64,000 nucleotides of DNA from an uncultured Bdellovibrionales bacterium. GTDB lineage: Bacteria; Patescibacteriota; Minisyncoccia; Moranbacterales; UBA2206. Position numbers and translations under genes: made by a program. Location: the NCBI GenBank assembly GCA_964406815.1, contig CAYOTC010000001.1, forward strand, positions 70-64,069. Direction: 5' to 3'. Positions 155 to 48,653 of this stretch are shown here, piece after piece. The notes under the pieces were generated by a model that saw nothing but the letters and a program-made list of their open reading frames with translations, was not told where the DNA came from and searched no databases. Each line of letters begins with the position of its first letter. Positions within the stretch are counted from its first letter, which is position 1.

Positions 155-3100
155 ATGAATCTCAAAAAGAAAACCAAATTAGGTTCCAGGTTTAAATTTT
201 ATAAGGGAAGCAGTTTTAGGGCTGGTTCTTTTTTGTTTTCGAAAAAGATAATTCTTGTATTAGCTTTGTTGATTTTATCGGCAGGGTTTCTTAGTTTTGC
301 TGGAAATGCACAAGCAATGGCTGGCGATTTGGATTTGAGTTTTTCTCCCGGAGTATTAAATGGTGCAAATGATTTGATACAATCCACAAATATCCAATCC
401 GACGGAAAAATATTAATCGGGGGATTTTTTACAACATACAATAATTACTCTATGTATTGCTCGTCTCAATTCTGATGGAACGTTGGATACATCTTTCAAC
501 CCTGGCACTGGAGCAAATAATAGTATATATGCCGTTGCTATCCAATCCGACGGAAAAATATTAATCGGAGGATCTTTTTCCTCATATAACGGCACAATAA
601 TAAATCGCATTGCCCGTCTAAATTCTGATGGTTCGCTTGATACATCTTTTAATCCCGGTATCGGCGCAAGTAGCACTATTTATTCTCTTGCCATCCAATC
701 TGATGGAAAAATATTAATTGGAGGAATTTTTTCCTTGTATAACGGTACGACAAGAAATCACATTGCCCGTCTAAATTCTGATGGATCATTAGATACATCC
801 TTTAACCCCGGCACTGGCTCAAATAGCGATATTAAATCTCTTGCCATCCAATCTGATGGAAAAATATTGATTGGAGGATATTTCACCTCATATAACGGGA
901 CTACAAGAAACTATATTGCCCGTCTAAATTCTGATGGATTATTAGATACGTCTTTTGATCCCGGCACTGGTGCAAGTAGTTTTATTTATTCTTTCTTCAT
1001 CCAATCCGATGGAAAAATAATTACTGGCGGAAACTTTACTTTATATAACGGCACGACAAGAAACCACATTGCCCGTCTAAATTCTGATGGTTCGCTTGAT
1101 ACATCCTTTGATCCAGGTACAGGCGCAAATTATGCCGTAAACTCAATTATCGTCCAATCCGATAAGGTGTTAATTGGAGGAGCCTTTACATCATATAATG
1201 GCACGACAAGAAACCACATTGCCCGTCTAAATTCTGATGGTTTACTTGATACATCCTTTGACCCCGGCACTGGCGCAAGTGGCACAATTAATTCCCTTAT
1301 CATCCAATCTGATAGCAAGCTAATTATAGGTGGGAGTTTCGGCTCATATAGTGGTGCATCTATAAATTGCATTGCTCGTCTTGATTCTGATGGAACACTG
1401 GATACTTCCTTTAATGTTAATAGTACAGGAATAAATAGTTATATAAATTCTGCAGTCATTCAATCCGACGGAAAAATATTGATTGGAGGAGCTTTTACGT
1501 CACATAATGGAATCTCTAGAAACCGCATTGCCCGTCTAAATTCTGATGGTTTACTTGATACATCCTTTGACCCCGGCACTGGCGCAAGTGGCACAATTAA
1601 TTCCCTTATCATCCAATCTGACGGGAAAATACTGATTGGTGGATCATTTTCGAACTATAATGGCATATTTAGAAACAGCATTGCTCGTCTCAATTCCGAT
1701 GGTTCACTGGATACATCTTTCAATCTTGGTACTGGTCCAAATAACTATACTCAGTCGATTGCCATTCAATCGGACGGAAAGATAGTTATTGGAGGAGGTT
1801 TTACGACATATAATGGCACAACCAGAAACTATATTGTTCGCCTAAATTCTGATAGATCATTGGATACATCATTTGATCCTGGTGCAGGAGCAAATAATAG
1901 TGTAACTTCTGTTGCTATACAATCTGACAGTAAAATATTAATCGGAGGAGGTTTTACAACATATAATGGTACAACTATAAATCGCATTGCTCGCCTTAAT
2001 TCCGATGGATCATTGGATACATCTTTTAATGTTGGTACGGGAGCGAGCAGTACTGTTCAATCTATTACCATTCAATCCGACGGAAAAGTACTAATAGGAG
2101 GATCTTTTACGTCATATAACGGCACAACTATAAACCGTATCGCTCGTCTAAATTCTGATGGTTCGCTTGATACATCTTTTAATACTGGTACTGGCACAAA
2201 TGCTTCAATTTATTCCATCAACATTCAATCCGACGGAAAAATATTAATCGGAGGAGGTTTTTCATCATATAACGGAACGGCTAGAAATAACATTGCACGG
2301 ATTAATTCTGATGGATCATTAGATAATGATTTTAACCCCGGAGCAGGAGCAAATAACTATGTGGCTTCTATTGCTCTCCAATCCGACGGAAAAGTGATCG
2401 CTGCAGGAGGTTTCAACAGCTATAACGATATTCCTGTCGCATACATCGCCAGAATCAACAATCCTCCGGTTACCACTCCAACTGTTACAACTAATGCGGT
2501 TTCTTCGATTTCATACACCATCGCCACAGGCAACGGAAATCTGACGTCAACCGGAGACGGTTCCACAACTAGATATATCCAATGGGGAATATCCTCCGGA
2601 ACATATACCTCAAGCTGTAACGCCGGAGCGACAACTTCTACCGGAAACTATTCTTGTTCTATGACTAGTCTTACTGCTGGCACGACATATTATGTCCGAG
2701 CTTATGCTACTAATTCCTCCGGAACCGGATACGGAGACGAAATAAGTTTTTCAACAACCGCCATAGCTGTTCCTACGGTAACTACTAATACTGTTACATC
2801 GATAAATTATACTACGGCTACTGGAGGAGGAAATGTCACGGCAACTAATGGCGCTAATCCGACAATCAGAGGAGTTGAATGGGGCACAGCTACTGGCTCT
2901 TACACTAACTCTTGTAATGCTGGAGCAGGAGGAATCGGAGCCTATACTTGCTCTATGACCAGCCTTACTTCCGGAACAACATATTATGTCAGAGCTTTTG
3001 CTACCAACTCCGCTGGAACCGGTTATGGAACAGAAATTAGCTTCAACACTTTATCTGGTTCTCCAACCGTTACTACTAATTCCACCACCAGCATTACTTC

Positions 3101-4373
3101 CATAGGAGCTACTGGCAATGGAAACATCACTAATACCGGAGGCAATAATCCCGAAAGATTTATCCAATGGGGAACAACTTCAGGAATCTATACCAGTGAA
3201 TGTACCGCCGGAACCGGAGGAACTGGAACGTATTCTTGTGCAATGAACAGTCTTACTCCTGAAACTACTTATTACTATCGAGCTAAAGCAACTAACTCAG
3301 GAGGAACCAGTTATGGAGATGAAAGTTCTTTTACTACTATTCCCGAAGGCATAATTATTCCCGATCCAATCCCTCAAGACATGACTGACGCTTACAATGA
3401 AGGATATATATCTATAGGAACCGGAACTCTTAATAGCACTAACCAAGTAACTACAAATCTTGACCTGACTATCACATCCAATAATGGCCAAGCCACTCTT
3501 CCCGTAAACACCCAAATCACCAACACCGACTCAGGCAACATCGATATGTCTCAATTCTCCATCTCTAACGTAACCACCCAGACCAAATCAACAATCTCCA
3601 CCACCAGAGGCTCAATCGAGATCGGTATCCCCAATACTAACTTAACTTTCTCCCAACCGATAGAAATATCAATAAGTGTAGGAACTCAATACAATGGAGA
3701 TATCCTGACTATCCAATCCCGATCCTACAACCAATCAGATTGGACCGATGAAGGCACCTGCACCGTCACCAACGGAATCTGCAGCTTCACTACCACCCAC
3801 GCCACCACCTATACCGTGAACGGAGACGGAACTATTACCGGAGAGACCAACATCAATACCAATCTCCCCATAGAATCAACCATCTCTCTCAGTTGTCCCG
3901 ATTCATTGGATCTAACCTCTATCACCGGCACCGGACAATCAACAATCGATACAAGCAACGAAGCTACCTGCAACATCGCCACCAACAACTCCAACGGCTA
4001 CAAGCTGGAATGGCAAGCTTCCAGTAATAATATGCAAAATTCCAATTCCGATACTATCAGTTCCTATACCCCAATAACTCCCAATGCTCCCGAACCTTGG
4101 CTCATCGACAATACCGCAAGTGAATGGGGAGCCAGACTAAAGAGCACCTCTACCGATAACGATACATCCACTTGGGGATTAAGTGATGGATATGACGGAA
4201 ACTGGTTAAACATAGATAACTCCACTCCATTTGAAATCATAAGAAGAACAGAAGAAACCGACCAATCCGGATCAGATGAAATCATCCAATTCGGAGCGGA
4301 AGTCGGATCAAACAAATTCCAACCTTCTGGAACTTACACTACTACAGTTACTATGACGGCGACGACGTTGTAA
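155..4373 (+). CDS. Giant secreted repeat protein. N-terminal signal peptide, then about 14 tandem ~51-aa repeats (LDTSFNPGTGA..IQSDGKILIGGSF.SYNGT.RN.IARLNSDGS; delta-60/TIGR02608-like from memory), then 3 FN3-like ~97-aa repeats and a T/S/N-rich C-terminal region. The two track ORFs (155..475 and 483..4373) look like one gene split by a frameshift near 440-482.
   Basis: Track ORFs 155..475 (signal peptide MNLKKKTKLGSRF...AGNAQA) and 483..4373. The first repeat unit is cut short (TYNNYSMYCSSQF*) while the other frame continues IARLNSDGTLDTSFNPG, matching the repeat consensus. Nucleotide periodicity 153 nt (about 330..2460) and ~290 nt x3 (about 2470..3345). Confidence 0.6.
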
Positions 4374-4506: not shown

Positions 4507-6033
4507 TTATTTTTGATGAATTCCTATATTATCTTCGGTTTTTTTTAAGCTTTTTTTAATATGCGCTTTCGCAATGGAAGTTTTGACAAATTTCAGCCAG
4601 TCCCGACTGGGCTGTTTTTCTTCTTTAGAAGTTAATATTTCAATTACGTCTCCGTTTTTTATCGCGTAATCCAAAGGAACCATCTTACCATTCGCCTTTG
4701 CCCCAAGAGTCCTATTTCCTATGGAACTGTGAACCTTGAAAGCAAAATCGACCGGAGTGGATTCTTCCGGCAAATCGATTATATCTCCGAGCGGAGTGAA
4801 AGCGAAAATATGATTTTTGAAAAAATCAATTCGGAGACCTTCAACAAATTCTTGATTGTCTTTACCGAGTTCATTTTGCCATTCTCTAAGTTGTCGGACC
4901 CATGCCAATTCTTTTTCTGGAATATCAACCTTCGGTTTGCTTCGAAAAAAATAATCCCGAATTCCTTTTTTTCTTTCGGAATATAACCAGTGTGAAGCGA
5001 TTCCAAACTCAGCCTCGTCATCCATTTTTTTTGTACGAATCTGTATTTCCAAGAAATTTCCTTCTGGTCCAAAAATCGTTGTGTGAATCGATTGATACCC
5101 ATTGGGTTTTGGAAGAGAAACATAATCCTTAATCCTTCCGACCAAAGGGCGATATTTTTTATGGACTATTCCCAAAGCTTCATAACAATTGGTAACTTCC
5201 GAAACGATGATTCGGATCCCGATTAGATCATAAATCTTATTGATGTCCATGTCGTGTCTTTTCATTTTTTGGAATAGGCTGAAAAGATGTTTGGTTCTTC
5301 CGAAGATATCTATCACTTCAATTCCTTCAAGCTGAAGTTCTTTCTTGAGTTCCGTTATGACTTCATTAATGTATTTTTTTCGCAAATCATATTGGTCGCG
5401 AGTTAATTTGCTGACAAAATCATAATTTTCTCTGTCAAGAAATTTAAAGGATTGATCTTCGAGACGCGCTTTCATTTCTCCGATTCCCAAGCGATTGGCA
5501 ATTGGTGCAAATATTTCCAATGTTTCCAAGGCGATTCGATGGCGTTTTTCCGGTGGCAAATATTCGAGAGTTTCGATATTATGCAACCTGTCGGCAAGCT
5601 TTATAAGAACTACTCGGATATCAGCCGCCATTGCCAGAAACATTTTCCTTAAATTTTCCAAATAGAGCTCTTCTTTTGTTCCATGGAGTCTTATTTTTCC
5701 CAGTTTTGTTACACCATCAACCAGTCCGGAGATTTCTGGACCGAATTTTTTCTCTATATCTTTAAGTGTGACTTGGGTATCTTCTGAAACATCATGGAGA
5801 ATTCCGGCAGAAATCGTCTTAGATCCCATCCCGAGTTTAGCAAGATTGAGAGCAGTATGAAGTGAATGCTGGATATAATCACGGCCGGACTTTCTCAGTT
5901 GTCCTTTGTGGGCTAAGTTGGCTGTTTCATAAGCGCCACGTATCAAAGCTTCTCGTTTAAAATCTAAATTAAACCTAACGCTCTTGAGAACATCTTCAAT
6001 TGTGATTATTTCCGTGGCTGACATATTTTTCAA
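4507..6033 (-). CDS. relA: Bifunctional (p)ppGpp synthetase/hydrolase, RelA/SpoT family (HD domain, synthetase domain, TGS domain; no ACT).
   Basis: HD motif ILHDVSEDT. Synthetase-domain block KHLFSLFQKMKRHDMDINKIYDLIGIRIIV...YQSIHTTI. TGS-like IFAFTPLGDIIDLPEESTPVDFAF. Confidence 0.85.
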   Translation of the reverse strand: MKNMSATEIITIEDVLKSVRFNLDFKREALIRGAYETANLAHKGQLRKSGRDYIQHSLHTALNLAKLGMGSKTISAGILHDVSEDTQVTLKDIEKKFGPEISGLVDGVTKLGKIRLHGTKEELYLENLRKMFLAMAADIRVVLIKLADRLHNIETLEYLPPEKRHRIALETLEIFAPIANRLGIGEMKARLEDQSFKFLDRENYDFVSKLTRDQYDLRKKYINEVITELKKELQLEGIEVIDIFGRTKHLFSLFQKMKRHDMDINKIYDLIGIRIIVSEVTNCYEALGIVHKKYRPLVGRIKDYVSLPKPNGYQSIHTTIFGPEGNFLEIQIRTKKMDDEAEFGIASHWLYSERKKGIRDYFFRSKPKVDIPEKELAWVRQLREWQNELGKDNQEFVEGLRIDFFKNHIFAFTPLGDIIDLPEESTPVDFAFKVHSSIGNRTLGAKANGKMVPLDYAIKNGDVIEILTSKEEKQPSRDWLKFVKTSIAKAHIKKSLKKTEDNIGIHQK

Positions 6034-6094
6034 AAGACTTGTTTTTTTGGTTATTTATGGAAGCCGAGTCAAAAGCTTGGAAATCTTTTTAAAT

Positions 6095-8377
6095 TTATTC
6101 TTCGTACCCGCATTCTTTGTTTGAACATTTGGTTTTTCCCTTAGCGGCAAAAACCATAAGGCTTTTGCATTTCGGACAGTTTTTTCCAGTAGGCTTATTC
6201 CAAATAGCGAAGTCACACTTAGGATAGGCATTGCATCCATAAAATAATCTTCCGCGTTTTGATTTTCTTTCTATGATGTCTCCCGAATTGCATTTCGGAC
6301 ATTTTACTCCAACCTTATTTTCTATTTTCTTTATATTACTACATTCCGGATATTTGGAACATCCCAAAAAAGCTCCGAATTTTCCCCGTTTCAAAATCAT
6401 TTTTGATCCGCATTTGTCGCAAACTTCTCCGGAAAACTCTTCATCCATCTTTTTTTCTTCCGCTGTCTTTTCGGTATGTTTGCACTCCGGATAATTTGAG
6501 CAAGCGATAAATTTTCCAAAACGCCCAAACTTGATAATCAAATCTCCTCCGCAATCCGGACACTGCTTATCGATTTTTTCTTGAAAAGATTCTTTTTTAA
6601 CTTCTTTTGTTTTTGTTTTCAAATTTTTGTGGAAAGGAACATAGAAATCTCGGACTACCGGTACCCATTCTTTTTCTCCATTGGCGATGGAATCGAAATT
6701 TTCTTCCAAGGTGGCGGTAAATTCTGTGTTAACGATTTGAGGAAAATGTTCTACTAAGGCATCATTTACAACTGCTCCGATTTCCAACGGGAAAAGTCTT
6801 CGCTCTTCGTTTTTGTCGACATATTTTCTTTCGATTATGGTCGAAATGGTCGGCGCATAAGTTGAGGGCCGTCCGATTCCGTGTTCTTCCAAAATTTTTA
6901 CCAGTGTCGCTTCATTATATCTTGGCGGAGCTTGAGTTAATTTCTGGTTCGGCAAAAGTTCAAGAAGATTTAGCCTATTTCCAATTTCCATTTTGGGTAA
7001 GATGTTTTCTCCGTCTTTAGCAGGTACTTTTTTTCCTCCGCCATAAACTTTCAAAAATCCATCGAATTTCAAAGTTGATCCGAGAGCGGAAAAAGAATAT
7101 TCATTTTTTGATTTCTTATTTTCCGCCTTTATTTCAACTTTCATCGAATTGAAAATTGCTGGTGGCATTTGGGAAGCGATCATTCTTTCCCAAATAAGCT
7201 TATAAAGCTTGTAATGCTTCGGATCAATTGATAGTTTTAATTCATCAGGAGTTTTTTCCGGATAAGCCGGACGGATGGCTTCGTGAGCCTCTTGAGCGCC
7301 CTTCGATTTATTTTTGAAGAATCTTGGGCTTTCCAAGGCATATTTTTTCCCGAAATTCTTAGTGATAATTTTTTGAGCGGACAGAAGCGACTCCAAGGAA
7401 AGATTAACGCTGTCAGTTCTCATATAAGTTATAAATCCTTCCTCATATAGTTTCTGAGCAATCATCATTGTTTGCTTAGCGGAATATCCTAGGGTATTTA
7501 TGGCAGATTGCTGGAGAGTGGATGTTGTAAACGGAGGAAGAGGCGATCGGGTAGTTTCTTTTTCTGCAATATCGGAAACGGAGAAATCCGATTCATTGAG
7601 ATCAGATATTATTTTTTCTGCATCCGGCTGATTTTTTATTATAGTCTTCTTTATTCTATAGTCCCCGGCAAAAAGTTTGAGAGTCTCTGTGCTTTCTATT
7701 TTTTCTCCATTATTTTTCGTAAGTTCAGCTTCAAAAGTATTTTCCGCATCAATCCCATCTTCTTTTTTAAGTCTGGCAGAAATTTTCCAATATTCTTCTG
7801 GGTGGAATTTTTCAATTTCTCTCTCTCTTTCAACAATCAGTCGTACGGCGACAGATTGAACACGTCCAGCAGAAAGTCCCCGGCGGATTTTTTTCCAAAG
7901 AAAGGGGGAAAGTTCATAGCCGACTAGACGATCAACGATACGTCTGGCTTGTTGCGCATTAACAAGATTCACATCCAATTCTCTCGGATTTTCCAGCGCT
8001 TTTTCAATGGCGGTTTTTGTAATCTCATGAAAGACGATTCTTTCCGTTTTTTTCTCATCTTTCTTTGGCTTTTTTCCATCAGAGAGATCCAGCGCTTGGA
8101 CTAAATGCCAGGAAATCGCTTCTCCTTCGCGGTCTTCGTCGGTTGCAAGGATGACCTTATCTGATTTTTTAGCAAGTCTCTTAAGTTCTTCCACCCTATC
8201 GACAGCTTTTCCCGGAATGACATATTGCGGAGTGAAATCATTTTCAATATCAATACCCATTTCTTTAGTGGGTAAATCGCGAATATGGCCATAACTGGAC
8301 TTTACGGTATATTTTTTTTCTAAGAATTTAGAAATTGTTTTAGCCTTAGTGGGGGATTCGACAATTATCAGATTCAT
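6095..8377 (-). CDS. topA: DNA topoisomerase I with C-terminal multi-C4 zinc fingers.
   Basis: TOPRIM N-terminus MNLIIVESPTKAKTISKFL. Topoisomerase IA core. C-terminal repeated CPxCG / CxxC zinc-ribbon modules. Confidence 0.9.
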   Translation of the reverse strand: MNLIIVESPTKAKTISKFLEKKYTVKSSYGHIRDLPTKEMGIDIENDFTPQYVIPGKAVDRVEELKRLAKKSDKVILATDEDREGEAISWHLVQALDLSDGKKPKKDEKKTERIVFHEITKTAIEKALENPRELDVNLVNAQQARRIVDRLVGYELSPFLWKKIRRGLSAGRVQSVAVRLIVEREREIEKFHPEEYWKISARLKKEDGIDAENTFEAELTKNNGEKIESTETLKLFAGDYRIKKTIIKNQPDAEKIISDLNESDFSVSDIAEKETTRSPLPPFTTSTLQQSAINTLGYSAKQTMMIAQKLYEEGFITYMRTDSVNLSLESLLSAQKIITKNFGKKYALESPRFFKNKSKGAQEAHEAIRPAYPEKTPDELKLSIDPKHYKLYKLIWERMIASQMPPAIFNSMKVEIKAENKKSKNEYSFSALGSTLKFDGFLKVYGGGKKVPAKDGENILPKMEIGNRLNLLELLPNQKLTQAPPRYNEATLVKILEEHGIGRPSTYAPTISTIIERKYVDKNEERRLFPLEIGAVVNDALVEHFPQIVNTEFTATLEENFDSIANGEKEWVPVVRDFYVPFHKNLKTKTKEVKKESFQEKIDKQCPDCGGDLIIKFGRFGKFIACSNYPECKHTEKTAEEKKMDEEFSGEVCDKCGSKMILKRGKFGAFLGCSKYPECSNIKKIENKVGVKCPKCNSGDIIERKSKRGRLFYGCNAYPKCDFAIWNKPTGKNCPKCKSLMVFAAKGKTKCSNKECGYEE

Positions 8378-8448
8378 TTTTGAATTGTTAAACTGTTAAA
8401 TGGTTGAATTGTTTCAAAAATCAATTTAGCCCTTTAGCAATTAAGCCG

Positions 8449-9564
8449 TTAAATTATTATATAATTTTGTCCGCCGATATTTTTCACCCAGCCTTTTATT
8501 TCCATTATGGAAAGACTGGAAGCAACGACAGCAGTTTCCAGTTTAGTAATTTTTGCAATATTGTCAATGTGAGTAGGGGAAGAAGACAAGGAATTAAGTA
8601 TTAGTTTCTCTTCCTCATTCTCAGGATTTTTCTTGATGATTTCATTTTTTTCCGGGATGGGCGAGAAACTGAATTCTTCCAATATGTCCCCGACACTGGA
8701 AACCAATTTGGCGCCTTTTTTTATAAGATTATTTGTTCCTTCTGAAGCGGGAGAAAAAATACTTCCCGGAACGGAAAAAACTTGTCGATTAGATTCTAGT
8801 GCGTAATTTGCAGTTATCAGGGCGCCACTTTTTTCCGAAGCCTCAATAACGATTGTGCCCAAAGACATTCCGGCAATGATTCGGTTTCGGGCTGGAAAAG
8901 TCATTTGAGTGGCTGGAGTTTTTGGCGGATATTCGCTCAAAATCGCTCCCCCGGAAGCGATTATTTCCTGAGATAATCTGAAATTAGCGCGTGGAAAAAT
9001 ATTTTCATTATCAGGACTGCTTCCTAAAACAGCAACGGTTTTACCTTTACAATCAAGCGTGCTTCTATGAGCAATAGCATCAATACCGATTGCGAGACCT
9101 GAAATAATAATGAATCCCGCTCGGGCCAAATCATTAGCCAGTTGCGCCGCCACTTGTTCTCCATAAGGCGTAAATTTTCTTGATCCGACAATTGAAATCG
9201 ATGGATAATGATTGAAATTTAAATTGCCTCTCATATATAAGATATGGGGCGGTCGGGAAATTTCCTTGAGCAATTTCGGGTAATATTCATCATCAATGGT
9301 CAGCACGCGAATATTTTCTTTTTCAATTAGCGCCCATTCTTTGTTTGGATTAATGGAATTTCTTTCATTAGTGAATTTTTGAGCGAGTTTTTCTCCGATG
9401 CCACTGGCTATAAGTTGGGACAAATCAGCTTTCCAGGCAATTTCCGAGTCATGAAAATGGTCCAAAATCATTTGCATTTTTTGCGGACCGATTCCGGATA
9501 TTTTATTTATAGCGTGGAGGTATTTCATGGAGAAAGGATAACACAACTTGTTGCCCCTTGACAA
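8449..9564 (-). CDS. dprA: DNA processing protein DprA (Smf). The true start may be the internal Met at 9528 (MKYLHAINKISGIG).
   Basis: DprA Rossmann-like core GLAIGIDAIAHRSTL...SGALITANYALESNRQVFSVPG. Conserved dprA-topA synteny. Confidence 0.8.
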   Translation of the reverse strand: MSRGNKLCYPFSMKYLHAINKISGIGPQKMQMILDHFHDSEIAWKADLSQLIASGIGEKLAQKFTNERNSINPNKEWALIEKENIRVLTIDDEYYPKLLKEISRPPHILYMRGNLNFNHYPSISIVGSRKFTPYGEQVAAQLANDLARAGFIIISGLAIGIDAIAHRSTLDCKGKTVAVLGSSPDNENIFPRANFRLSQEIIASGGAILSEYPPKTPATQMTFPARNRIIAGMSLGTIVIEASEKSGALITANYALESNRQVFSVPGSIFSPASEGTNNLIKKGAKLVSSVGDILEEFSFSPIPEKNEIIKKNPENEEEKLILNSLSSSPTHIDNIAKITKLETAVVASSLSIMEIKGWVKNIGGQNYIII

Positions 9565-9587
9565 ATTCTGATGTTATGTGTTAGTAT
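9558..9587 (+). promoter_or_regulatory. Candidate sigma70 promoter TTGACA-N18-TAGTAT upstream of the 9627 gene.
   Basis: ccccTTGACAaattctgatgttatgtgtTAGTATttcg. Confidence 0.4.
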
Positions 9588-9626
9588 TTCGTGAAGCTAA
9601 AATAATTAATTTATTGCATAATATAT

Positions 9627-10697
9627 ATGAATAAGGAAAAGAATGCTAATAATATATCGCCTGCAAAAAAGGCTAAGGAAATTTTCGAATTTTATAACCT
9701 TATAGACAGGATGATTTTGACTTTGCCGGAAAGATCGCGGGATATAATCAAAAAAAGATTCGGAATAGTTGAGGATGGGACTCAACATACGCTTGAAAAA
9801 ATAGGCAAGGATTATAAGATAACGCGGGAAAGAATCCGCCAAATTATTGCTGACGCCATAAAAACGATCTGCAAAAGTGAACATAAGGATGATTTTCACA
9901 AAGCGGAAGATGAAGTGGTTTTTGCAATCGAAAAAAATGGTGGTATAATAAAAGAAATAGATGCGATAAAAAAATTGAATCTGGACGGCCTGAAGGAAGA
10001 AAACGCTATTCGGTTTTTTGTTGCTTGTTCAGAAAGAATAAAAGTTAAATTTGAAAATGGCAGAGTGGAAAAATCTTGGATTTCTGACGAAGCGGTAATG
10101 GATCAGTTTGGTCGAGTTGAGAAGGAAGCAAAACTTATTCTTACGGAGAAAAAAAAGCCGCTTAAGGATGAAGAAATAATCACTCATCTTTCTGAAAAGA
10201 TGCCGGATTTTTCCAAAGAGCATATTATGTCGCATCTGAGCGTTATGTCTCAAGTCAAAAGAAATGTTTTTGGAAAATGGGGACATCATAACTGGATGGA
10301 TATAAGACCGAAAGGTAGCAAAGAAAGAATTCATTTGGTTCTCAAGGAAGAAGGGAAGCCGTTGCATTTTACCGAAATAGCCAAACTTATAGACAAATAT
10401 GGACTTGGTAAGAAAAAATCTCATCCGCAAACGGTTCACAACGAACTTATAAAAGACGATCGGTTTGTTCTTATTGGTCGGGGAATATATGCGCTTAGAG
10501 ATTGGGGATATTACGAAGGCACGATCAAGGATGTTATTAGTAATATTCTCGAAAAAAGCGGACGTCCGATGAGGCGGGAAGAAATAATAGATGAAGTCCT
10601 GAAAATCAGAAAGGTGAAAAAAACTACGATTATGATTAATCTCAACAATCCGAAATTCTTCAAAAAAAACGGTGAATTATACAGCTTGAACAGATAG
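9627..10697 (+). CDS. Sigma-70 region-4-like HTH protein with a C-terminal winged-helix (HARE-HTH-like) domain.
   Basis: N-terminal LEKIGKDYKITRERIRQI resembles a sigma70 region 4 HTH. C-terminal HFTEIAKLI...DDRFVLIGRGIYALRDWG resembles a HARE-type wHTH. Confidence 0.4.
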   Translation: MNKEKNANNISPAKKAKEIFEFYNLIDRMILTLPERSRDIIKKRFGIVEDGTQHTLEKIGKDYKITRERIRQIIADAIKTICKSEHKDDFHKAEDEVVFAIEKNGGIIKEIDAIKKLNLDGLKEENAIRFFVACSERIKVKFENGRVEKSWISDEAVMDQFGRVEKEAKLILTEKKKPLKDEEIITHLSEKMPDFSKEHIMSHLSVMSQVKRNVFGKWGHHNWMDIRPKGSKERIHLVLKEEGKPLHFTEIAKLIDKYGLGKKKSHPQTVHNELIKDDRFVLIGRGIYALRDWGYYEGTIKDVISNILEKSGRPMRREEIIDEVLKIRKVKKTTIMINLNNPKFFKKNGELYSLNR

Positions 10698-10722: not shown

Positions 10723-12024
10723 TTGCTGTTCCTGTTATTTGGTAAAAACAAAAAAATGGATACATTGGGAGGCGACTTAAATATCTTTCAAATAGCCGGC
10801 AAAATAGTTTATTTTGGCTGGTGGTTGATTCTGCCAATAATTTTTTGGCAACTTTTTAAAGTTATCTGGATTGATTTTGTGGCTTTTTATTCCAAGAACA
10901 GCTGGTATCTTAATCAAAAATGGTCTGTTCTGGAAATTATTCCGCCTCGTGACATTGAATCCGGTCCTAAACCGATGGAGTCGGTTTTTACCGGTATTGC
11001 CGGAGCGATAGCAGCGCCGAATACTTTTGATACTTGGATTAAGGGTCAGATTCCTGACCGATTTAGCGTGGAGCTTGTCGGCGAGGAAGGAAAAGTGCAT
11101 TATTATATCCGAACTCAGAAAAAATACCGCAATATGATTGAGGCGCAGATTTATGCCCAATATCCGAATGCGCAGGTTATCGAAGTGGAAGATTATTACA
11201 GTAAGTTTCCCAAAATTGTTCCTAATCGTGATTGGGATCTTTGGGGAACTGATTTTGAATTTACCAGAAAAAAATACTTTCCTATTCGGACATACGATAA
11301 ATTCCAAGAGGATATTACCGGCAATATGGTTGATCCTATGGCGGCGATGGTGGAGGTTTTGGGAACGCTTGGTCCGGGTCAGCATATCTGGCTGCAATTT
11401 GTTCTGCAAGCGGTTCCTGAGCCGGATATTATAAAAGAAAGCAAAGAAGTGATTGATGAACTTAAAGGAAAAAAGGCAGTTCAATTTTTCGGTTTTTTAG
11501 ATAATATAATGGATGTTTTTTCAAATGTTTTTAAACTTATTTTCAAAGGAGAACTCAGTTTTGAAACGGCGGATAAAAAAGATGAACAGCCATTGGAATT
11601 TCGTCTTTCCCCGATGGAAAAAGAAATCCTGAAAGCAGTTGAGGAAAATGCCGGCAAGAATCAATTTACAACCAAAATGAGGATGATAATTTTGGGAAAA
11701 AGGGAAGTTTTTGATAAAAATTTGATCAGTATTTTTATCGGATCGCTCAAGCAGTTCAATGATATGAATGCCAATCAATTCAAGCCGGAAGATATTTCGA
11801 AAACTTATGGAAAGATTTTTTTCACCGAAGGCATTGCCAATTTAAGAAAGAGAAAAATTTATGACAGATACAGAAAGAGAAATATGGATGGTGTGAATGT
11901 GCAATTTTCCGTTAAAGAATTGGCTACAATCTTCCATTTTCCGAATATCGTGGTAAAATCTCCGGCTGTAACTCAAACTTCCGGAAAACTCGGTGCAGCG
12001 CCTTCAAATCTGCCAGTGGAATAA
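10723..12024 (+). CDS. Membrane-anchored hypothetical protein (N-terminal TM helix). Likely partner of the downstream ATPase.
   Basis: Hydrophobic N-terminus IVYFGWWLILPIIFWQLFKVIWIDFVAFY. No recognisable catalytic motifs. Confidence 0.4.
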   Translation: MLFLLFGKNKKMDTLGGDLNIFQIAGKIVYFGWWLILPIIFWQLFKVIWIDFVAFYSKNSWYLNQKWSVLEIIPPRDIESGPKPMESVFTGIAGAIAAPNTFDTWIKGQIPDRFSVELVGEEGKVHYYIRTQKKYRNMIEAQIYAQYPNAQVIEVEDYYSKFPKIVPNRDWDLWGTDFEFTRKKYFPIRTYDKFQEDITGNMVDPMAAMVEVLGTLGPGQHIWLQFVLQAVPEPDIIKESKEVIDELKGKKAVQFFGFLDNIMDVFSNVFKLIFKGELSFETADKKDEQPLEFRLSPMEKEILKAVEENAGKNQFTTKMRMIILGKREVFDKNLISIFIGSLKQFNDMNANQFKPEDISKTYGKIFFTEGIANLRKRKIYDRYRKRNMDGVNVQFSVKELATIFHFPNIVVKSPAVTQTSGKLGAAPSNLPVE

Positions 12025-12097
12025 TAATTGAATTGCTAAATTGTTAAATGGCTTGATGGCTGTAAAAATATAGCAACAAATACTGAAGAAATTTAAC

Positions 12098-12129
12098 TAT
12101 TTATCAATTTAACCATTTATCAATTTAAC
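12098..12129 (+). repeat. Tandem 16-nt direct repeat (tATTTATCAATTTAAC x2, plus an extra AATTTAAC) immediately upstream of the ATPase start codon.
   Basis: gaaATTTAACtATTTATCAATTTAACcATTTATCAATTTAACaaATG. Confidence 0.5.
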
Positions 12130-12131
12130 AA

Positions 12132-13970
12132 ATGACTCAAATAAATTTTTTCGCCAAAACTAATTTTAGGAACCAGGAAAGGATTTTCGGAATCAAGGAG
12201 GATGATCGCCGCCGACATATGTATATTATCGGAAAGACCGGTATGGGAAAATCCAACTTGCTGGAGAATATGGCGATTCAGGATATTCGCAATGGCAAAG
12301 GAGTATGCGTTGTTGATCCGCACGGAGAATTTGCGGAAAAGATGCTTCGCGCCATTCCAGCCGAACGGATAAATGATGTGGTTTATTTCAATCCGGCGGA
12401 CGCGGAATTTCCGGTGGCTTTTAATATTTTGGAAGCGGTCGAAGAAGATAAAAAAAACTTGGTCGCTTCCGGAATGATGGGGGTTTTCAAAAAAATCTGG
12501 CCGGACGTGTGGAGTCCGAGGATGGAATATATTCTTAACAACACTATTCTTGCACTTTTGGATTATCCTGGTTCGACGATGCTTGGAGTGAATCGGATGA
12601 TGAGCGATAAAGATTACAGAAAAAGAGTCTATCCGAAAATCAAAGATCCGGTGGTGAAATCTTTTTGGATAAATGAGTTCGACAAATGGGAAGACCGATT
12701 TCGAAAAGAAGCGGTGGCAGCGATCCAAAACAAAGTCGGACAATTCTTGTCCTATACCTTAGTCCGTCATATTATCGGTCAGCCAAAATCGACCATCGAT
12801 ATGCGAGAGATTATGGATAATCAGAAAATCTTGATTGTTAATCTCTCCAAAGGCAGGATCGGGGAAGACGCGATGCGGCTTTTGGGAGGAATGATAATCA
12901 CCAAAATCCAGCTGGCGGCGATGAGTCGGGTGGAAATTACGGAAGAGGAAAGAAAAGATTTCTATCTTTATGTCGACGAATTCCAGAATTTTGCGACGGA
13001 ATCTTTTTCCAACATCCTTTCTGAAGCGAGAAAATATCGCTTGTGTTTGATTTTGGCTCATCAATATATTAATCAGTTGATATTTGACGGAAATTCGACA
13101 GTGCGTGATGCAATTTTTGGAAACGTCGGAACACTCATATCCTTCCGGGTCGGTGCGGAAGACGCGGAACATCTTGAGAAGGAATATGAGCCGGTTTTTA
13201 TGATGAACGACATTGTCAATCTTTCGAAATATAATATTTATCTGAAATTGATGATCGACGGAATTGCCGGTGACGCTTTTTCCGCGACGACGCTTCCGCC
13301 GATTTCCATCGCTGATACGAAAGATAATGAAGAAAAGGCTATTCGGATTTCACGGGAACGGTATGGAAAATCCAGAAAGGAAGTTGAAGATAAGATCGCG
13401 CGTTGGAGCGGTATGGGCGGATATGACGAGCCGGAAGTGATGGTTGATAAAAAATCTTCTGAAGTTGAAATGAAAGACGAATTTGTTCCGGAAATTAACA
13501 ATATCAAAAATGTAAGTATAGTGAAGGAAACTCCCTCAGCTAAACCAGCGGTGGCTGTTTCTGAGAAAAAAATTCCTGCCGTGTCTTCGGAGGCAAAAGA
13601 GGAGAAGGTGATGTATGAAGCGACTTGCGATACCTGCGAAGAAAAGATAATGGTGCCGTTCAAGCCGGACAAATCTCGGCCGACTTTCTGCCGGGAGTGT
13701 CTTAAGGATTACCAGCGTCTACGGGCGAGAAAGCAGGAAGAGATGCAGCAAACTGCGAGAAAGAATTATCCTCCGAAAATATCAAACAGCAATCCTAAGG
13801 CTGAAGAAAATGATTATCAGCCGGGCGTTGTTGTTCCGAAAGACAAACCGATGTCCCTTTCTCAGATGTCGCATATCGCGCCGAAAAAATTCAAGTCGCC
13901 AAAAAGAAATCCCAATATCGATTTGGGAGGGCTAAGAGATTTAATAAATAAGAGTCGGAAAGAAAATTAA
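12132..13970 (+). CDS. FtsK/HerA/TraD-superfamily P-loop ATPase (DUF87/AAA_10-like) with a C-terminal CxxC...CxxC zinc ribbon and a basic tail.
   Basis: Walker A IIGKTGMGKSNLL. DPHGEF motif typical of HerA/DUF87 ATPases. Walker B LYVDEFQNF. C-terminal CDTCEEK...FCRECL. Confidence 0.55.
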   Translation: MTQINFFAKTNFRNQERIFGIKEDDRRRHMYIIGKTGMGKSNLLENMAIQDIRNGKGVCVVDPHGEFAEKMLRAIPAERINDVVYFNPADAEFPVAFNILEAVEEDKKNLVASGMMGVFKKIWPDVWSPRMEYILNNTILALLDYPGSTMLGVNRMMSDKDYRKRVYPKIKDPVVKSFWINEFDKWEDRFRKEAVAAIQNKVGQFLSYTLVRHIIGQPKSTIDMREIMDNQKILIVNLSKGRIGEDAMRLLGGMIITKIQLAAMSRVEITEEERKDFYLYVDEFQNFATESFSNILSEARKYRLCLILAHQYINQLIFDGNSTVRDAIFGNVGTLISFRVGAEDAEHLEKEYEPVFMMNDIVNLSKYNIYLKLMIDGIAGDAFSATTLPPISIADTKDNEEKAIRISRERYGKSRKEVEDKIARWSGMGGYDEPEVMVDKKSSEVEMKDEFVPEINNIKNVSIVKETPSAKPAVAVSEKKIPAVSSEAKEEKVMYEATCDTCEEKIMVPFKPDKSRPTFCRECLKDYQRLRARKQEEMQQTARKNYPPKISNSNPKAEENDYQPGVVVPKDKPMSLSQMSHIAPKKFKSPKRNPNIDLGGLRDLINKSRKEN

Positions 13971-13991: not shown

Positions 13992-15164
13992 ATGAATAAT
14001 AATCAAAAACATTTGAATCATGTAGATAAAGTTAATTTGGGGTCCTACTATACTCCAGAAATTGTTGTTGATTTGACTTATTCTATCTTGTATAAAAATA
14101 TTTCTAATATTAAGAGCTTTACAATTTTAGATTCATCTTGTGGTTATGGATCATTTTTGGAAAAAAAAGATTTAATAAAAAGATTTGTGGGTGCGGATAT
14201 TGATAATATAGCTATATTGGAAGCTACGAAAAAAAATAAACACGTTGATTTTATTTGCCAGAATTCACTTATGAATGTGTGCAGGGATAATCTTACTATT
14301 AAGAAAGAAGAAAAAATTATAGTTATAGGAAACCCTCCATATAATGATACAACCTCTATAATTCGTAGCTCTATAAAAGACGCATCTATTCAGAATAAAA
14401 TTGATTTAGATATAAAAACCAGAGATTTAGGAATGTCTTTTTTGCTTTCTTATGACAAACTTAAGGCTGATTATGTTTGTGTTTTACATCCATTATCTTA
14501 TTTAATTAAAAAAGCTAATTTTTCTCTACTCTCAAAATTTTCTAGAAATTATAAATTAATTGACGGATTAATTATAAGTAGTCATGAATTTTCCGAGACT
14601 TCTCGTGGAATAGCCTTTCCGATTTTAATTGCTCTTTACAAAAGAGATGAAATAGGGATGGGCTATGATTATATTCAAAATTATCAGTTCAAAGTAAAGG
14701 ATGATGGAGTCTTTCGACTAAAAGATTTTGATACGATAGTAAACTATGTTCAAAAATATCCAAATAAAAAATTTTTAAATAAAAATGATAAACCAGTAGC
14801 TAAGTTTTGGACTTTGAGAGATATAAATGCTCTTAAACGAAACCGGACTTTTATTAATGAGGATACTTATAATACCGTTTATGTGTTAATGGAAAAACTC
14901 CCTTATTATTGTTATATTGATGTGTTTAAACAATATGCTGATAAAATGCCATATTTTATTGGAAATTGCGATATTATTATTGATAATAATAAATTTGGAA
15001 AAATAAAGGAATGCTTTATCGATCAAAGTATTCACACAAATCCAGTTTTAAAAAATAAGTTTAATTTTAGAAAAATTCCTAATGCTAAACTAAAAATAGA
15101 TAATTATTTTAAAGAATTATTAGGAAGTAAGCTAGGTAAAAAATATGCCAAAAATTTTAATTAA
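13992..15164 (+). CDS. Gamma-class N6-adenine DNA methyltransferase (M.TaqI/Eco57I-like architecture).
   Basis: Motif X GSYYTPEIV. Motif I ILDSSCGYGSFL. Motif IV IVIGNPPYN. C-terminal ~270 aa would be the target-recognition domain. Very AT-rich relative to flanks. Confidence 0.7.
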   Translation: MNNNQKHLNHVDKVNLGSYYTPEIVVDLTYSILYKNISNIKSFTILDSSCGYGSFLEKKDLIKRFVGADIDNIAILEATKKNKHVDFICQNSLMNVCRDNLTIKKEEKIIVIGNPPYNDTTSIIRSSIKDASIQNKIDLDIKTRDLGMSFLLSYDKLKADYVCVLHPLSYLIKKANFSLLSKFSRNYKLIDGLIISSHEFSETSRGIAFPILIALYKRDEIGMGYDYIQNYQFKVKDDGVFRLKDFDTIVNYVQKYPNKKFLNKNDKPVAKFWTLRDINALKRNRTFINEDTYNTVYVLMEKLPYYCYIDVFKQYADKMPYFIGNCDIIIDNNKFGKIKECFIDQSIHTNPVLKNKFNFRKIPNAKLKIDNYFKELLGSKLGKKYAKNFN

Positions 15165-15906
15165 TGAAATTGAACATAAAATTGAAGTGCCAATTTTACT
15201 AACTGCAGTAAGTGGAAAAATTCGCATTAAGAATCGTTCAATCGTAAATGAATACGGAACTCCTGTCGCAGTTAGACGAGACGGTTTTGCTTTAAACAAC
15301 TATGTTGAATGGCAAATCGGCTATGATGTTGTCAAAAAGGAAGCTGATAAATTAGCAGAATCATCACTGCCAGAAACAGAGTTTATTGGTGCAAATGGTA
15401 AAAACAAAGCACTTTACGAGTTATCAGAGTATATTTGGTATTTTCATAAATGGAATATTATATCCAGAGAAGAGCTAGAGAGTGTTGCTAATTACCTCAA
15501 TTCGATACTAGCTAATGACTTGATTGATAATAACTCTGAATTACAGATTGATCGTAGTCATCCGATAGCAAAAAATATAAATGGATTTGATTTTGAGTAC
15601 ACCCAAGTTAAATATCCTCTTTTAATTTACAAATTCAATGGATATGAAATAGTTACCGAAATAAAAATTACCGAAAAACAATATGCAGTTGGCACTCAGC
15701 CAATGCTATATTTATGTTTTTCGATTACAGAATTAAAAGCTAGAACTAACTTAGTCGGACGAACCGCCGAAATGAAAGAAATAGCTCACTTTGAAATTAC
15801 AGAAAGTAATATTAAAGTATTTTTGGAAATGTTAAAAATGTTTGGCACTCTATCTGATAGTCATAGACATGATATTTTACAAATTATAGATGTAATATTG
15901 ACTTAA
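15145..15906 (+). CDS. Hypothetical protein. Candidate cognate restriction endonuclease, by operon context only.
   Basis: Overlaps the MTase stop by 20 nt and has the same extreme AT-richness. No clear PD-(D/E)xK motif is visible by eye. Confidence 0.3.
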   Translation: MPKILINEIEHKIEVPILLTAVSGKIRIKNRSIVNEYGTPVAVRRDGFALNNYVEWQIGYDVVKKEADKLAESSLPETEFIGANGKNKALYELSEYIWYFHKWNIISREELESVANYLNSILANDLIDNNSELQIDRSHPIAKNINGFDFEYTQVKYPLLIYKFNGYEIVTEIKITEKQYAVGTQPMLYLCFSITELKARTNLVGRTAEMKEIAHFEITESNIKVFLEMLKMFGTLSDSHRHDILQIIDVILT

Positions 15907-23440: not shown

Positions 23441-23456
23441 ATTTATTTAATCATAT

Positions 23457-48648: not shown

Positions 48649-48653
48649 AAAAT

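Follow-up and report, generated by a model that had tools for sequence, protein, structure and literature searches.

A predicted split coupling-protein-type translocase in Moranbacteria: a membrane-anchored protein and the adjacent P-loop ATPase

Two adjacent genes in the window, a 64,000-nucleotide stretch of DNA from a member of the Moranbacterales (Patescibacteriota), encode a membrane-anchored protein and a soluble P-loop ATPase that, judged by sequence, together make up a single machine, the gene-fission form of a family that is found as a single chain on phages and plasmids. The pair is a vertically inherited chromosomal core unit of Moranbacteria and distant relatives, not mobile-element cargo. 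Its role is predicted: with a probability of about 0.6 it is a split, membrane-anchored translocase of the coupling-protein type with a VirB4-like N-domain. A first-pass annotation of this DNA had proposed a translocase-type ATPase with a membrane partner, a reading now supported by the adjacency of the genes and by their fusion on phages, plasmids and a haloarchaeal plasmid; it had missed the predicted VirB4 N-domain-like fold of the membrane protein and the apparent derivation of the pair by fission of a single-chain family.

The gene pair and its single-chain relatives

Both open reading frames lie on the forward strand, the first at 10723..12024 (433 aa from a TTG codon) and the second at 12132..13970. 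The membrane-anchored partner, here called MEM, almost certainly starts at ATG 10756 and not at TTG 10723, because its homologues begin in alignment at the residue corresponding to this ATG and an identical database protein is 422 aa long; MEM is thus a 422-aa protein encoded at 10756..12024. Of the earlier description as a 433-aa N-terminally anchored protein, the anchor, a single N-terminal helix, stands and the length does not. The second frame encodes the soluble ATPase of the TrwB/TraD (type IV coupling protein, T4CP) kind, whose length of 612 aa and motifs were borne out by the reading frame and its sequence.

Both halves occur in one colinear protein of 825-1193 aa (phrog_5156) in Bacillus phages and plasmids and on a haloarchaeal plasmid, the carriers being Bacillus phages G, SPO1 and JL, a B. 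subtilis plasmid and the haloarchaeal plasmid. These phage and plasmid coupling ATPases, e.g. gp156 of phage G, SPO1 gp27.4, 0305phi8-36 orf201 and a 913-aa "DUF87" protein, are homologous to both MEM and the ATPase: phrog_5156 residues 77-355 correspond to MEM aa 101-397, and residues 407-805 to ATPase aa 23-423 (4.5e-64 for the ATPase), and the ATPase core also aligns to gp156 aa 380-767. In a profile search of the fused proteins with HMMs built from 152 MEM and 112 ATPase sequences, the MEM model matched the N-halves and the ATPase model the C-halves of four proteins: gp156 (60 and 191 bits, respectively), the 913-aa protein of the B. subtilis plasmid (39 and 156 bits), SPO1 gp27.4 (22 and 90 bits) and a Haladaptatus protein of 1193 aa (17 and 158 bits). 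VirB4-like proteins of the same elements reached at best 8.8 bits with either model, in the Walker A region only.

The fused forms reside on phages and plasmids and are without an N-terminal hydrophobic segment, whereas here there are two chromosomal core genes with no relaxase or VirB4 gene adjoining, a MEM half that has gained a membrane helix, and a zinc-ribbon tail on the ATPase. Neighbours of the fused gene are a replication-relaxation-family relaxase directly 3' on the B. subtilis plasmid, which also carries a Tcp-like transfer locus, the Replic_Relax protein gp27.3 in SPO1, and a VirB4-like gene in phage G; a separate VirB4-like ATPase stands alongside the fused form on both the B. subtilis plasmid and phage G. 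A phage "DNA translocation operon" of the same layout is dispensable in the laboratory (PMC3357382).

Architecture of the two proteins

MEM is assigned to PF26449 among precomputed Pfam families and had no match in the local Pfam and NCBIfam profile sets; source annotations, where given, read "hypothetical protein", and the family comprises 1,659 clusters at 50% identity (E<=1e-3). A single N-terminal hydrophobic helix, the transmembrane segment, covers aa 17-45 (10804..10890) in a Kyte-Doolittle scan and aa 4-45 in the AlphaFold model, and a comparable N-terminal segment is present in 222 of 278 family members. The large domain is probably cytoplasmic and the short N-terminus external, since homologues have the MEM part fused to a cytoplasmic ATPase.

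The cytoplasmic domain (~aa 56-392, 10921..11931) is predicted to have a fold like that of the VirB4 N-terminal domain (residues 15-400 of VirB4), first modelled in the R388 structures. The prediction comes from one AlphaFold2 monomer model of moderate confidence (pLDDT 72.5, pTM 0.70), with structural matches given at the level of whole TrwK chains: the top 14 Foldseek matches in the PDB were all TrwK/VirB4 chains (E 5e-6 to 3e-4), and in BFVD the model matched the N-half of phage G gp156 (2.7e-17), the VirB4-like gp155 (1.6e-7) and a "component of type IV transporter system" (1.3e-5). At the sequence level hhalign gave a probability of 0.9% for MEM against the VirB4 N-domain, and sequence searches of the PDB and Pfam found no VirB4 homology. 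MEM ends in a conserved tail (ELATxFHFP...VKSP...APxNLP; 11908..12021) with invariant K387, E388, A390, H394, P396, V400, A415, P416, N418, L419 and P420, the motif being retained across the whole family. The phrog_5156 fused proteins share an E-x5-H-x-P linker motif before the Walker A region, which in gp156 reads E-x-x-x-x-x-H-L-P and lies ~85 aa before Walker A. The tail is likely the counterpart of the linker that joins the two domains in the fused proteins, and would serve as a docking element for the ATPase. In the monomer model its pLDDT is below 50 at residues 399-405, 407-416 and 418-422, and a model of concatenated MEM and ATPase from single sequence had a pLDDT of 36.5.

The ATPase core (aa 23-423, 12198..13400) contains Walker A GKTGMGKS (aa 34-41, 12231..12254), a DPHGEF motif, Walker B LYVDEFQNF (aa 279-287, 12966..12992) and an AHQ motif, and a Kyte-Doolittle scan of the protein found no hydrophobic segment. 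Direct reading confirmed every motif that had been listed for it, the C-terminal CxxC...CxxC ribbon included. Three Pfam profiles score above threshold, TrwB_AAD_bind (52.9 bits, cut-off 20.5), DUF87 (41.4 bits, cut-off 23.2) and TraG-D_C (28.9 bits, cut-off 22); of the two Pfam families first suggested, DUF87 therefore held and AAA_10 matched weakly (15.4 bits). SXT_TraD gave 53.5 bits, VirB4_CagE 19.5 bits (cut-off 643), and the NCBIfam TraD/VirD4 equivalogs were all far under cut-off. The Walker A, DPxG and Walker B motifs align to the sequence of the TrwB crystal structure. An HMM of the ATPase family found neither VirB4 nor VirD4 of the Ti plasmid, and the superfamily placement is therefore taken from the Pfam and NCBIfam profiles alone.

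The zinc ribbon, C499xxC502-x17-C520xxC523 (aa 499-523, 13626..13700), is followed by a basic tail extending to 13967 and scores above threshold with both Pfam zf_Tbcl_2 (1.2e-10) and NCBIfam TIGR04272 (CxxC-x17-CxxC; 44.6 bits, cut-off 36). It is present in 70 of 72 Moranbacteria homologues and 31 of 41 distant ones, and together with the basic tail probably forms a nucleic-acid- or partner-binding module.

Predicted role in relation to known systems

In the proposed mechanism the MEM tail would dock the ATPase on the cytoplasmic side of the membrane and so restore a protomer of VirB4-shaped N-domain and motor; the motor would oligomerise like its relatives and, using ATP, pass a substrate on to a channel in the envelope. 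The substrate would most likely be nucleic acid or nucleoprotein, to judge by the zinc ribbon, the basic tail and the relaxases encoded alongside fused relatives. [quoted passage not shown] This last step is weakened by the one Patescibacterium with genetics, in which the T4CP homologue was reported non-essential and the T4SS genes essential.

Of 3,035 Patescibacteria genomes, 2,918 have been reported to contain T4CP homologues; just 148 of these lie near virB4, no more than 109 relaxases were found, and the authors suggest exaptation (Quinonero-Coronel et al. 2025, PMC12102498). The ATPase has the same profile as these "orphan" homologues, i.e. VirD4-like, chromosomal, far from virB4 and relaxase-less; the retrieved passages of that paper on T4CP homologues mention no membrane partner, VirB4-like N-domain, fission or fusion, or zinc-ribbon tail. 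The likeness to VirD4, TrwB and TraD lies in the nucleotide-binding domain, with its TrwB_AAD_bind and TraG-D_C matches and TrwB-aligned motifs; unlike those proteins, the ATPase chain is without a transmembrane domain, the VirB4-like N-domain would be supplied in trans, and no relaxase was seen among the window ORFs scanned. By description only, the pair also resembles TraJ/TraI of pIP501 (class iii, PMC7431656), where the coupling protein is a soluble motor lacking a membrane domain of its own and acts together with a second protein that would hold it at the membrane. MEM differs from that system in being a 422-aa protein with a large, predicted VirB4-like cytoplasmic domain, and the pair in its apparent origin by fission.

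Likeness to VirB4 (TrwK of R388) is seen in the MEM model, which matches essentially only VirB4 among solved structures, in the same order and size of N-domain (~400 aa) and P-loop motor (~420 aa), and in the membrane helices on the N-terminal side, as VirB3 gives VirB4. The fold, the size and the domain order, together with the view that Patescibacteria T4SSs are repurposed for non-conjugative roles, would also suit a further VirB4 paralogue, split in two, that powers the assembly of pili or the export of proteins and acts on non-DNA substrates. Such a paralogue is unlikely, however, since the ATPase scores coupling-protein profiles (52.9 and 53.5 bits) above VirB4 profiles (19.5 and 15.4 bits), and since phage G and the B. 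subtilis plasmid each encode a VirB4-like ATPase in addition to the fused form, which lies beside a relaxase in SPO1 and on that plasmid. Unlike VirB4, moreover, the pair consists of two chains, and its N-domain has no detectable sequence similarity to that of VirB4.

Conceivable, if doubtful, is a motor for DNA uptake, in which the pair would power or gate the import of environmental or host DNA together with ComEC and type IV pili, or with a T4SS in the import direction. The Helicobacter ComB system is a T4SS run in this direction. In two distant loci (L135 and L142) MEM is directly followed by comEC (Competence and DUF4131, the metallo-beta-lactamase part being a separate ORF) and then by pilM, which is Pfam-confirmed in L135 and recognised by sequence similarity only in L142; dprA lies one gene from the pair, divergently, in the window and close relatives; the zinc ribbon and basic tail would suit nucleic-acid binding; and Patescibacteria are almost without relaxases. 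The comEC adjacency, however, is confined to 2 of 160 loci and the dprA linkage to close relatives, and the relaxases beside the fused relatives point to export-type conjugation. A review reports that deletion of comEC in Southlakia abolishes competence and leaves viability intact; T4SS essentiality therefore cannot act via ComEC, which argues against an uptake motor.

Inheritance of the pair and its neighbours

The ATPase gene is directly 3' of MEM in 78 of 78 Moranbacteria loci and in 54 of 69 distant metagenome loci, in which MEM identity drops to 27-40%; the other 15 distant loci have no ATPase downstream of MEM. The first-pass annotation had raised the prospect that the two genes do not co-occur elsewhere, and these counts decisively show that they do. 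Among close relatives the median identity of the ATPase is 72%, as against 67% for topA, 74% for relA and 51% for alaS; the G+C of the pair is native (0.35-0.47), and the same flanks recur in many genomes, with relA-topA-dprA upstream and mnmA-alaS downstream. Membership of the ATPase in a housekeeping family, also raised at that stage, proved true only in that it is inherited like a Patescibacteria core gene, whereas the family itself is of the secretion/conjugation type. The pair lies near a point where the G+C skew changes sign, a possible replication origin.

That the ATPase is the coupling protein of a conjugative or mobilisable element integrated at this site is very improbable and already contradicted. 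Family membership, the relaxases beside fused relatives and an adjoining acquired R-M island would favour it; against it stand the native G+C, the recurrent housekeeping flanks and an identity like that of housekeeping genes. Nor does a relaxase or T4SS gene flank the pair: a partial scan of the window ORFs against family libraries showed no VirB3, VirB4, VirB6, VirB8 or relaxase gene, and the sole recombinase found in the window is ~37 kb away.

The R-M island (13992..15906), a type II methyltransferase and an R.Pab1-family endonuclease, is an insertion peculiar to this strain, located between the ATPase gene and mnmA, and the pair is not part of it. Its G+C is 0.24-0.33, unlike that of the pair, and neither R-M protein was matched by tblastn in any of 160 related loci. 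The acquired island first noted next door is real; its implied link to the pair is not supported. A defence module, in which a HerA-like or MADS-like ATPase acts with the adjacent R-M genes, is barely plausible. The ATPase does match PADLOC mad8 (1.3e-19) and, weakly, HerA, the methyltransferase weakly matches MADS2 (E 0.006), and the island physically adjoins the pair; yet the pair is kept in the related loci that lack the R-M genes, HerA equivalog models, whose cut-offs are 800-970, reach just 15-16 bits, no further MADS component turned up, and MEM has no PADLOC match. No NurA or Sir2 gene was seen in the flanks, with the R-M genes downstream and a putative DNA-binding protein gene upstream, and on these comparative data the earlier suggestion of a HerA-type defence system was rejected.

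The upstream gene, "sigHARE" (9627..10697, + strand, 356 aa), encodes an N-terminal sigma-70 region 4 (Sigma70_r4, 3.4e-12) and a HARE-HTH domain (1.3e-16; RNA polymerase delta-like), and matches NCBIfam TIGR04567 (46.2 bits, cut-off 42). It is found upstream on the same strand in 78 of 78 Moranbacteria loci with room for it and in 36 of 64 distant loci, at a median gap to MEM of ~70-125 nt, and is unrelated to the relaxase adjoining the fused homologue. A functional link to the pair is suggested; sigHARE may be a third component or simply an old syntenic neighbour. This conserved DNA-binding neighbour, the housekeeping-level conservation and core-gene behaviour, and the position near a possible origin would accord with an FtsK-like pump that handles the cell's own chromosome at division, with the HTH protein as its DNA-recognition subunit. 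Such a pump is quite improbable: the Pfam and NCBIfam searches gave no FtsK_SpoIIIE match and no gamma domain, the term FtsK occurs in papers on the Saccharibacterium TM7x, and the fused relatives are phage- or plasmid-borne, two of them beside a relaxase.

MEM and the ATPase gene are separated by a 107-nt spacer (12025..12131, + strand) whose + strand showed no promoter-like or terminator-like site; in relatives the spacer is unrelated in sequence, with a median of 20 nt and a range of 0-556 nt. As first described, it contains 2.5 copies of a 16-nt tandem repeat (12090..12129, + strand; Tandem Repeats Finder period 16, 95% match, score 73) with an 8-nt sub-period AATTTAAC and two exact copies of ATTTATCAATTTAAC, and the array stops 2 nt short of the ATPase ATG. 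The 40-nt array was found in no related locus compared and the repeat had no Rfam match. Given the spacers of relatives, a conserved role is not supported, and the repeat is probably a lineage-specific spacer expansion. Allowing up to 2 mismatches, the 16-nt unit has 7 matches in the window against 1.25 expected, i.e. above chance locally.

A membrane protein and an ATPase related to single chains

Two open reading frames on the forward strand, 10723..12024 and 12132..13970, and a repeat in the spacer between them were described in the first-pass annotation, and all of these were found in the sequence. The first product, a membrane-anchored protein (MEM), had been given 433 residues; the frame is open from position 10723, but the real start is almost certainly the ATG at 10756, yielding 422 residues, because homologues begin there and an identical 422-aa database protein exists. 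MEM has a single N-terminal hydrophobic helix (aa 17-45) and a conserved C-terminal tail, which the monomer model shows as disordered. It is annotated at source, where at all, as "hypothetical protein", and MEM itself matches no local Pfam or NCBIfam profile; PF26449.1 is the precomputed Pfam family of the MEM-identical protein P0001 and of all 120 homologues listed, and no paper found by literature search mentions it. The second product is a 612-aa P-loop ATPase with a conserved N-terminus and intact catalytic motifs, namely GKTGMGKS at aa 34-41, DPHGEF, and LYVDEFQNF at aa 279-287; its C-terminal part holds a zinc ribbon of the form CxxC-x17-CxxC (aa 499-523) with a basic tail behind it. No hydrophobic segment was detected in the ATPase by the same scan that shows the segments of Ti VirD4 at aa 10-32 and 60-88. 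The close homologues of the window proteins all come from Candidatus Moranbacteria (Patescibacteria / candidate phyla radiation).

The proposal that the ATPase works with MEM as its membrane partner is supported by their co-occurrence elsewhere. Among 80 close genome loci seeded with MEM at 42-64% identity, the ATPase gene directly follows MEM in 78 of the 78 whose contig continues, and among 80 metagenome loci whose seeds were distant family members 27-40% identical to the window MEM, it follows in 54 of the 69 with at least 800 nt of room. Moreover, the phage protein family phrog_5156 (824 positions) spans both proteins colinearly, MEM aa 101-397 matching positions 77-355 (4.1e-14) and ATPase aa 23-423 matching positions 407-805 (4.5e-64), so that its arrangement of N-terminal domain and C-terminal ATPase domain is present here split over two genes. 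An HMM built from 152 MEM sequences picks out the N-half, and one from 112 ATPase sequences the C-half, of each of four proteins that are single chains: gp156 of phage G (825 aa), a 913-aa protein from a B. subtilis plasmid, gp27.4 of SPO1 (906 aa) and a 1193-aa protein from a Haladaptatus plasmid. Where these elements also encode VirB4-like ATPases, those score essentially nothing with either HMM (best 8.8 bits, Walker A region only). The break between the genes lies in a linker, directly behind the conserved motif E-L-A-x-x-x-H-F-P ... N-L-P, and the same motif is found ahead of the Walker A region in gp156. On the basis of the colinear sequence matches, the window pair is therefore a gene fission of one protein, or else the single-chain relatives are its fusion.

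Some outlying members of the ATPase family differ in arrangement. A 395-aa ATPase-only homologue on the alphaproteobacterial Sulfitobacter mediterraneus plasmid NZ_CP081110 (L163, 6953..8140) is 41% identical to the window ATPase core, a closer match than those from Firmicutes or archaea; transposase genes come after it, and its annotated neighbours include no MEM-like gene. Many non-Moranbacteria ATPases (e.g. L106, L108, L109, L138 and L149) end in P-G-(E/Q)-x-(I/V)-x-F, a short motif conserved at the extreme C-terminus that the window ATPase does not carry.

Family placement of the ATPase and predicted fold of its partner

Profile searches place the ATPase among proteins resembling type IV coupling proteins (T4CPs), since it exceeds the cut-offs of TrwB_AAD_bind (PF10412, 52.9 bits against 20.5), TraG-D_C (PF12696, 28.9 against 22) and DUF87, as the first-pass annotation had anticipated in part; the AAA_10 likeness suggested there fell short at 15.4 bits against 27.5. 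The crystal-structure sequence of TrwB (1e9r) aligns to the ATPase at Walker A and Walker B, and the likeness is thus to the nucleotide-binding domain of VirD4/TrwB/TraD. However, T4CPs have an N-terminal transmembrane domain in the same chain, whereas the anchor here is the separate MEM protein, and they are encoded with a relaxase and/or a mating-pair-formation locus, whereas the scanned neighbourhood of the pair has neither: ~20 window ORFs scanned against family libraries include no relaxase, VirB4 or VirB6, and none of these directly flanks the pair in related loci. Every curated TraD, VirD4, VirB4 and HerA equivalog is missed by a wide margin, e.g. SXT_TraD (53.5 vs 366 bits), conj_TOL_TraD (34.6 vs 647), TraD_Ftype (32.2 vs 521), the CD1115 VirD4-like profile (43.5 vs 250) and the VirB4 motor profile TIGR00929 (19.5 vs 643). 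The HMM of the ATPase family detects neither Ti VirB4 nor Ti VirD4 and therefore cannot rank the two. The ATPase belongs to a class already known and surveyed, with a partner gene that is catalogued but unnamed.

Other ATPase families were considered. The suggestion of a defence-associated HerA-type ATPase did not survive, the HerA profiles NF040819 and NF040937 scoring 16.3 bits against 970 and 15.4 against 800, and the PADLOC HerA matches covering the Walker A region only; no NurA, Sir2 or DUF4297 partner of HerA flanks the pair. An FtsK-like role in chromosome handling is very unlikely: FtsK/SpoIIIE proteins combine their motor profile with a gamma wHTH domain and a multi-pass membrane domain, a combination not found here, and the FtsK_SpoIIIE profile gave no Pfam or NCBIfam match to either protein.

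The partner protein leads toward VirB4. An AlphaFold2 model of MEM from 36 sequences (a single medium-confidence model, pLDDT 72.5, pTM 0.70) was compared by Foldseek with the PDB, where TrwK chains take all of the top 14 places (E 5e-6 to 3e-4) ahead of a match at E 0.012, and with viral models (BFVD), where fused homologues come first (gp156, 2.7e-17), followed by VirB4-like proteins, namely gp155 of phage G (1.6e-7) and one labelled "component of type IV transporter system" (1.3e-5). Because MEM has no P-loop, because no other P-loop ATPase is among the Foldseek matches and because the R388 structures were the first in which the N-domain of VirB4 (residues 15-400) could be built, we infer that the modelled fold corresponds to the N-terminal domain of VirB4, here carried on a separate chain; the aligned part is itself assigned by this reasoning. 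A sequence link between MEM and the VirB4 N-domain was sought by PDB profile search, which returned nothing relevant, by Pfam at E<=10, where MEM matched no family including CagE_TrbE_VirB (PF03135), and by an hhalign comparison between 278 MEM sequences and 76 N-domains of VirB4, which gave a probability of 0.9%; at the same Pfam threshold a faint TraC_F_IV match (E 0.18) appeared for the N-half of SPO1 gp27.4 only. A single-sequence model of MEM concatenated with ATPase residues 1-432 reached pLDDT 36.5 and pTM 0.24, too low to be of use. The pair thus shares with the VirB4 family a predicted likeness of N-domain fold but reaches neither its sequence membership nor its motor profile thresholds, and a VirB4-like role in secretion or assembly, to which that fold would point, is very unlikely.

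The genomic surroundings of the single-chain relatives bear on the same question. In the B. subtilis plasmid, a replication-relaxation-family protein follows the 913-aa protein, and beyond it lies a Tcp-like transfer locus that includes a large ATPase of its own; in SPO1 a Replic_Relax protein comes after gp27.4, and phage G gp156 comes after a VirB4-like ATPase. With a relaxase as neighbour in the plasmid and in SPO1, the fused protein therefore takes the coupling-protein position there, and besides it the plasmid and phage G each encode another ATPase that is VirB4-like. The equivalent genes of phage 0305phi8-36 were described as a "DNA translocation operon", dispensable in the laboratory, with genes for a relaxase, for a coupling ATPase that lacks a membrane domain, and for VirB6-like and MreB-like proteins (Pathria et al. 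2012, PMC3357382).

Chromosomal setting and a possible role in Patescibacteria

The pair has native G+C (0.35-0.47) and lies among relA, topA, dprA, mnmA and alaS in an order that recurs in many genomes. Median identities are 72% for the ATPase and 58% for MEM, compared with 67% for topA, 74% for relA and 51% for alaS, and by this measure the pair is as conserved as its neighbouring housekeeping genes. A mobile-element reading was rejected on these three features: the native G+C, the recurrent housekeeping neighbours and the housekeeping-level identity. A gene for a sigma-70 region 4 and HARE-HTH protein (sigHARE, 9627..10697) precedes MEM on the same strand in 78 of 78 close and 36 of 64 distant loci.

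[quoted passage not shown] The window pair, without relaxase, VirB4 or VirB6 among the scanned ORFs, fits this survey. VirD4, T4CP and VirB4 are not mentioned in the available part of the Cell 2023 Patescibacteria genetics paper.

Our preferred reading, which we hold more likely than not, is that the pair forms a split, membrane-anchored translocase of the coupling-protein type with a VirB4-like N-domain. The large MEM domain would be cytoplasmic, because elsewhere it is fused to the cytoplasmic ATPase. The MEM tail would dock the motor at the membrane and so recreate a VirB4-shaped protomer, the motor would oligomerise like TrwB and VirB4, and the zinc ribbon and basic tail might be the binding site for nucleic acid or for a partner; hydrolysis of ATP would then deliver substrate to an envelope channel, most likely a relaxase-less T4SS encoded elsewhere. 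A coupling protein made from two genes has precedent in TraJ/TraI of pIP501 (PMC7431656), which MEM and the ATPase resemble in this respect. Counting against the step of delivery to a T4SS channel, the Southlakia T4CP homologue is reported as non-essential and the T4SS genes as essential in the survey text available (PMC12102498). A role in DNA uptake is unlikely as an alternative, although comEC follows MEM in two distant loci, L135 (2997..6846) and L142 (5453..9115). MEM is there followed by comEC and not by the ATPase, with pilM next, Pfam-confirmed in L135 only; in both, the Competence + DUF4131 part of comEC and its metallo-beta-lactamase part are separate ORFs.

A bolder reading, to which we give a probability of roughly 15%, makes sigHARE, MEM and the ATPase one Patescibacteria-wide machine that is independent of conjugation: a domesticated, split translocase, coupling/VirB4-like in kind, by which nucleic acid or some other polymer from the host would be loaded into the relaxase-less T4SS or out of it. 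If this is correct, such loading into or out of the T4SS would place the trio at the centre of the exchange of material between these reduced-genome epibionts and their hosts, and the family would be a deep branch joining a VirB4-type N-domain to a coupling-protein-type motor, informative about the divergence of VirB4 and T4CPs. Within a limited literature search, the fission/fusion relationship, the predicted VirB4-like fold of the partner and the tight phylum-scale linkage of the pair appear to be new. The question of what T4CPs do in Patescibacteria becomes more testable, since in at least this lineage two genes make up the unit, one of them encoding a dedicated membrane partner of apparently VirB4-like fold, and the unit is split from a chain that stands beside a relaxase in SPO1 and the B. 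subtilis plasmid; this suggests that "T4CP" surveys in these bacteria would do well to score the partner gene too.

Some further features of this region concern its upstream side. The sigma-70 region 4 and HARE-HTH protein, encoded immediately upstream of MEM, is RNA polymerase delta-like; as a cryptic relaxase it was rejected, having no similarity to the replication-relaxation protein and no relaxase domain. Gene orientation flips at 9565..9626, between dprA (- strand) and the sigma/HARE gene (+), and G+C skew is negative over 1-8 kb and positive from ~9 kb (change within about 6000..10000). A replication origin may lie near the pair; the window ORFs that were examined include no dnaA.

The intergenic spacer, the adjacent restriction-modification genes and other features

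The 107-nt spacer between the two genes contains 2.5 copies of a 16-nt tandem repeat (12090..12129) ending 2 nt ahead of the ATPase ATG. The repeat, to which the first-pass annotation had drawn attention, is absent from every relative compared, and no terminator-like site, + strand promoter-like site or Rfam match was found in the window spacer; it was accordingly rejected as a conserved regulatory element or RNA. The spacer in close loci has a median of 20 nt (range 0 to 556 nt), and the long spacers of other relatives hold unrelated short repeats or, in seven genomes, a terminator-like hairpin. The latter, found in the Moranbacteria loci L006, L010, L013, L021, L023, L030 and L040 (about 7250..7370 in most), has the form ACGGGATCC...GGATGAT(C/T)TCGTCC followed by a T-run; it is conserved with a variable inner stem, has no Rfam match and does not occur in the window, and it suggests regulated read-through between the MEM and ATPase genes of those genomes. 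Other short direct repeats, roughly 8-nt periodic units like TTCGTA, TTCGCA or TTTGTA, occupy the spacers of L003, L012, L020, L026 and L041. The intergenic site seems prone to repeat expansion or to hold putative lineage-specific binding-site arrays.

A type II restriction-modification (R-M) pair at 13992..15906, with a 20-nt overlap of its two genes, is an insertion that separates the ATPase gene from mnmA; in most close relatives mnmA follows the ATPase gene. It encodes an Eco57I-like methyltransferase (PADLOC MTase_II, 3.2e-85) and an R.Pab1-family endonuclease (Pfam, 2.2e-43), and its G+C of 0.24-0.33 deviates from the 0.35-0.47 of the pair. The R-M island noted earlier is therefore present, but its link to the pair is not upheld, tblastn of both proteins giving no match in any of 160 related loci; island and repeat are incidental to the pair, and a false lead is thereby removed. 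A MADS defence system was likewise rejected: the ATPase matches mad8 (1.3e-19), but the methyltransferase beside it is of the ordinary type II kind, with its R.Pab1 partner, and no multi-gene mad locus is conserved together, the R-M genes being missing in all relatives.

Elsewhere in the window, a gene for an FtsA/PilM-like actin-fold ATPase (22175..23440) is followed by a 684-aa ORF (region 22175..25511) with no Pfam match at E<=1e-5. A 1296-aa ORF at 483..4373 (+), largely 12.7 tandem copies of a 153-nt (51-aa) unit, probably encodes a repetitive surface protein. A segment of low G+C (~0.30) at 46000..52900 may be an integrated element; it ends at a serine recombinase gene (51345..52889, Resolvase and Recombinase domains) whose 3' end overlaps tRNA-Gln (52802..52874, - strand). 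A LOOT RNA (Rfam RF03000) is found at 49252..49374 (+), scoring 83.2 bits against a gathering score of 46.4.
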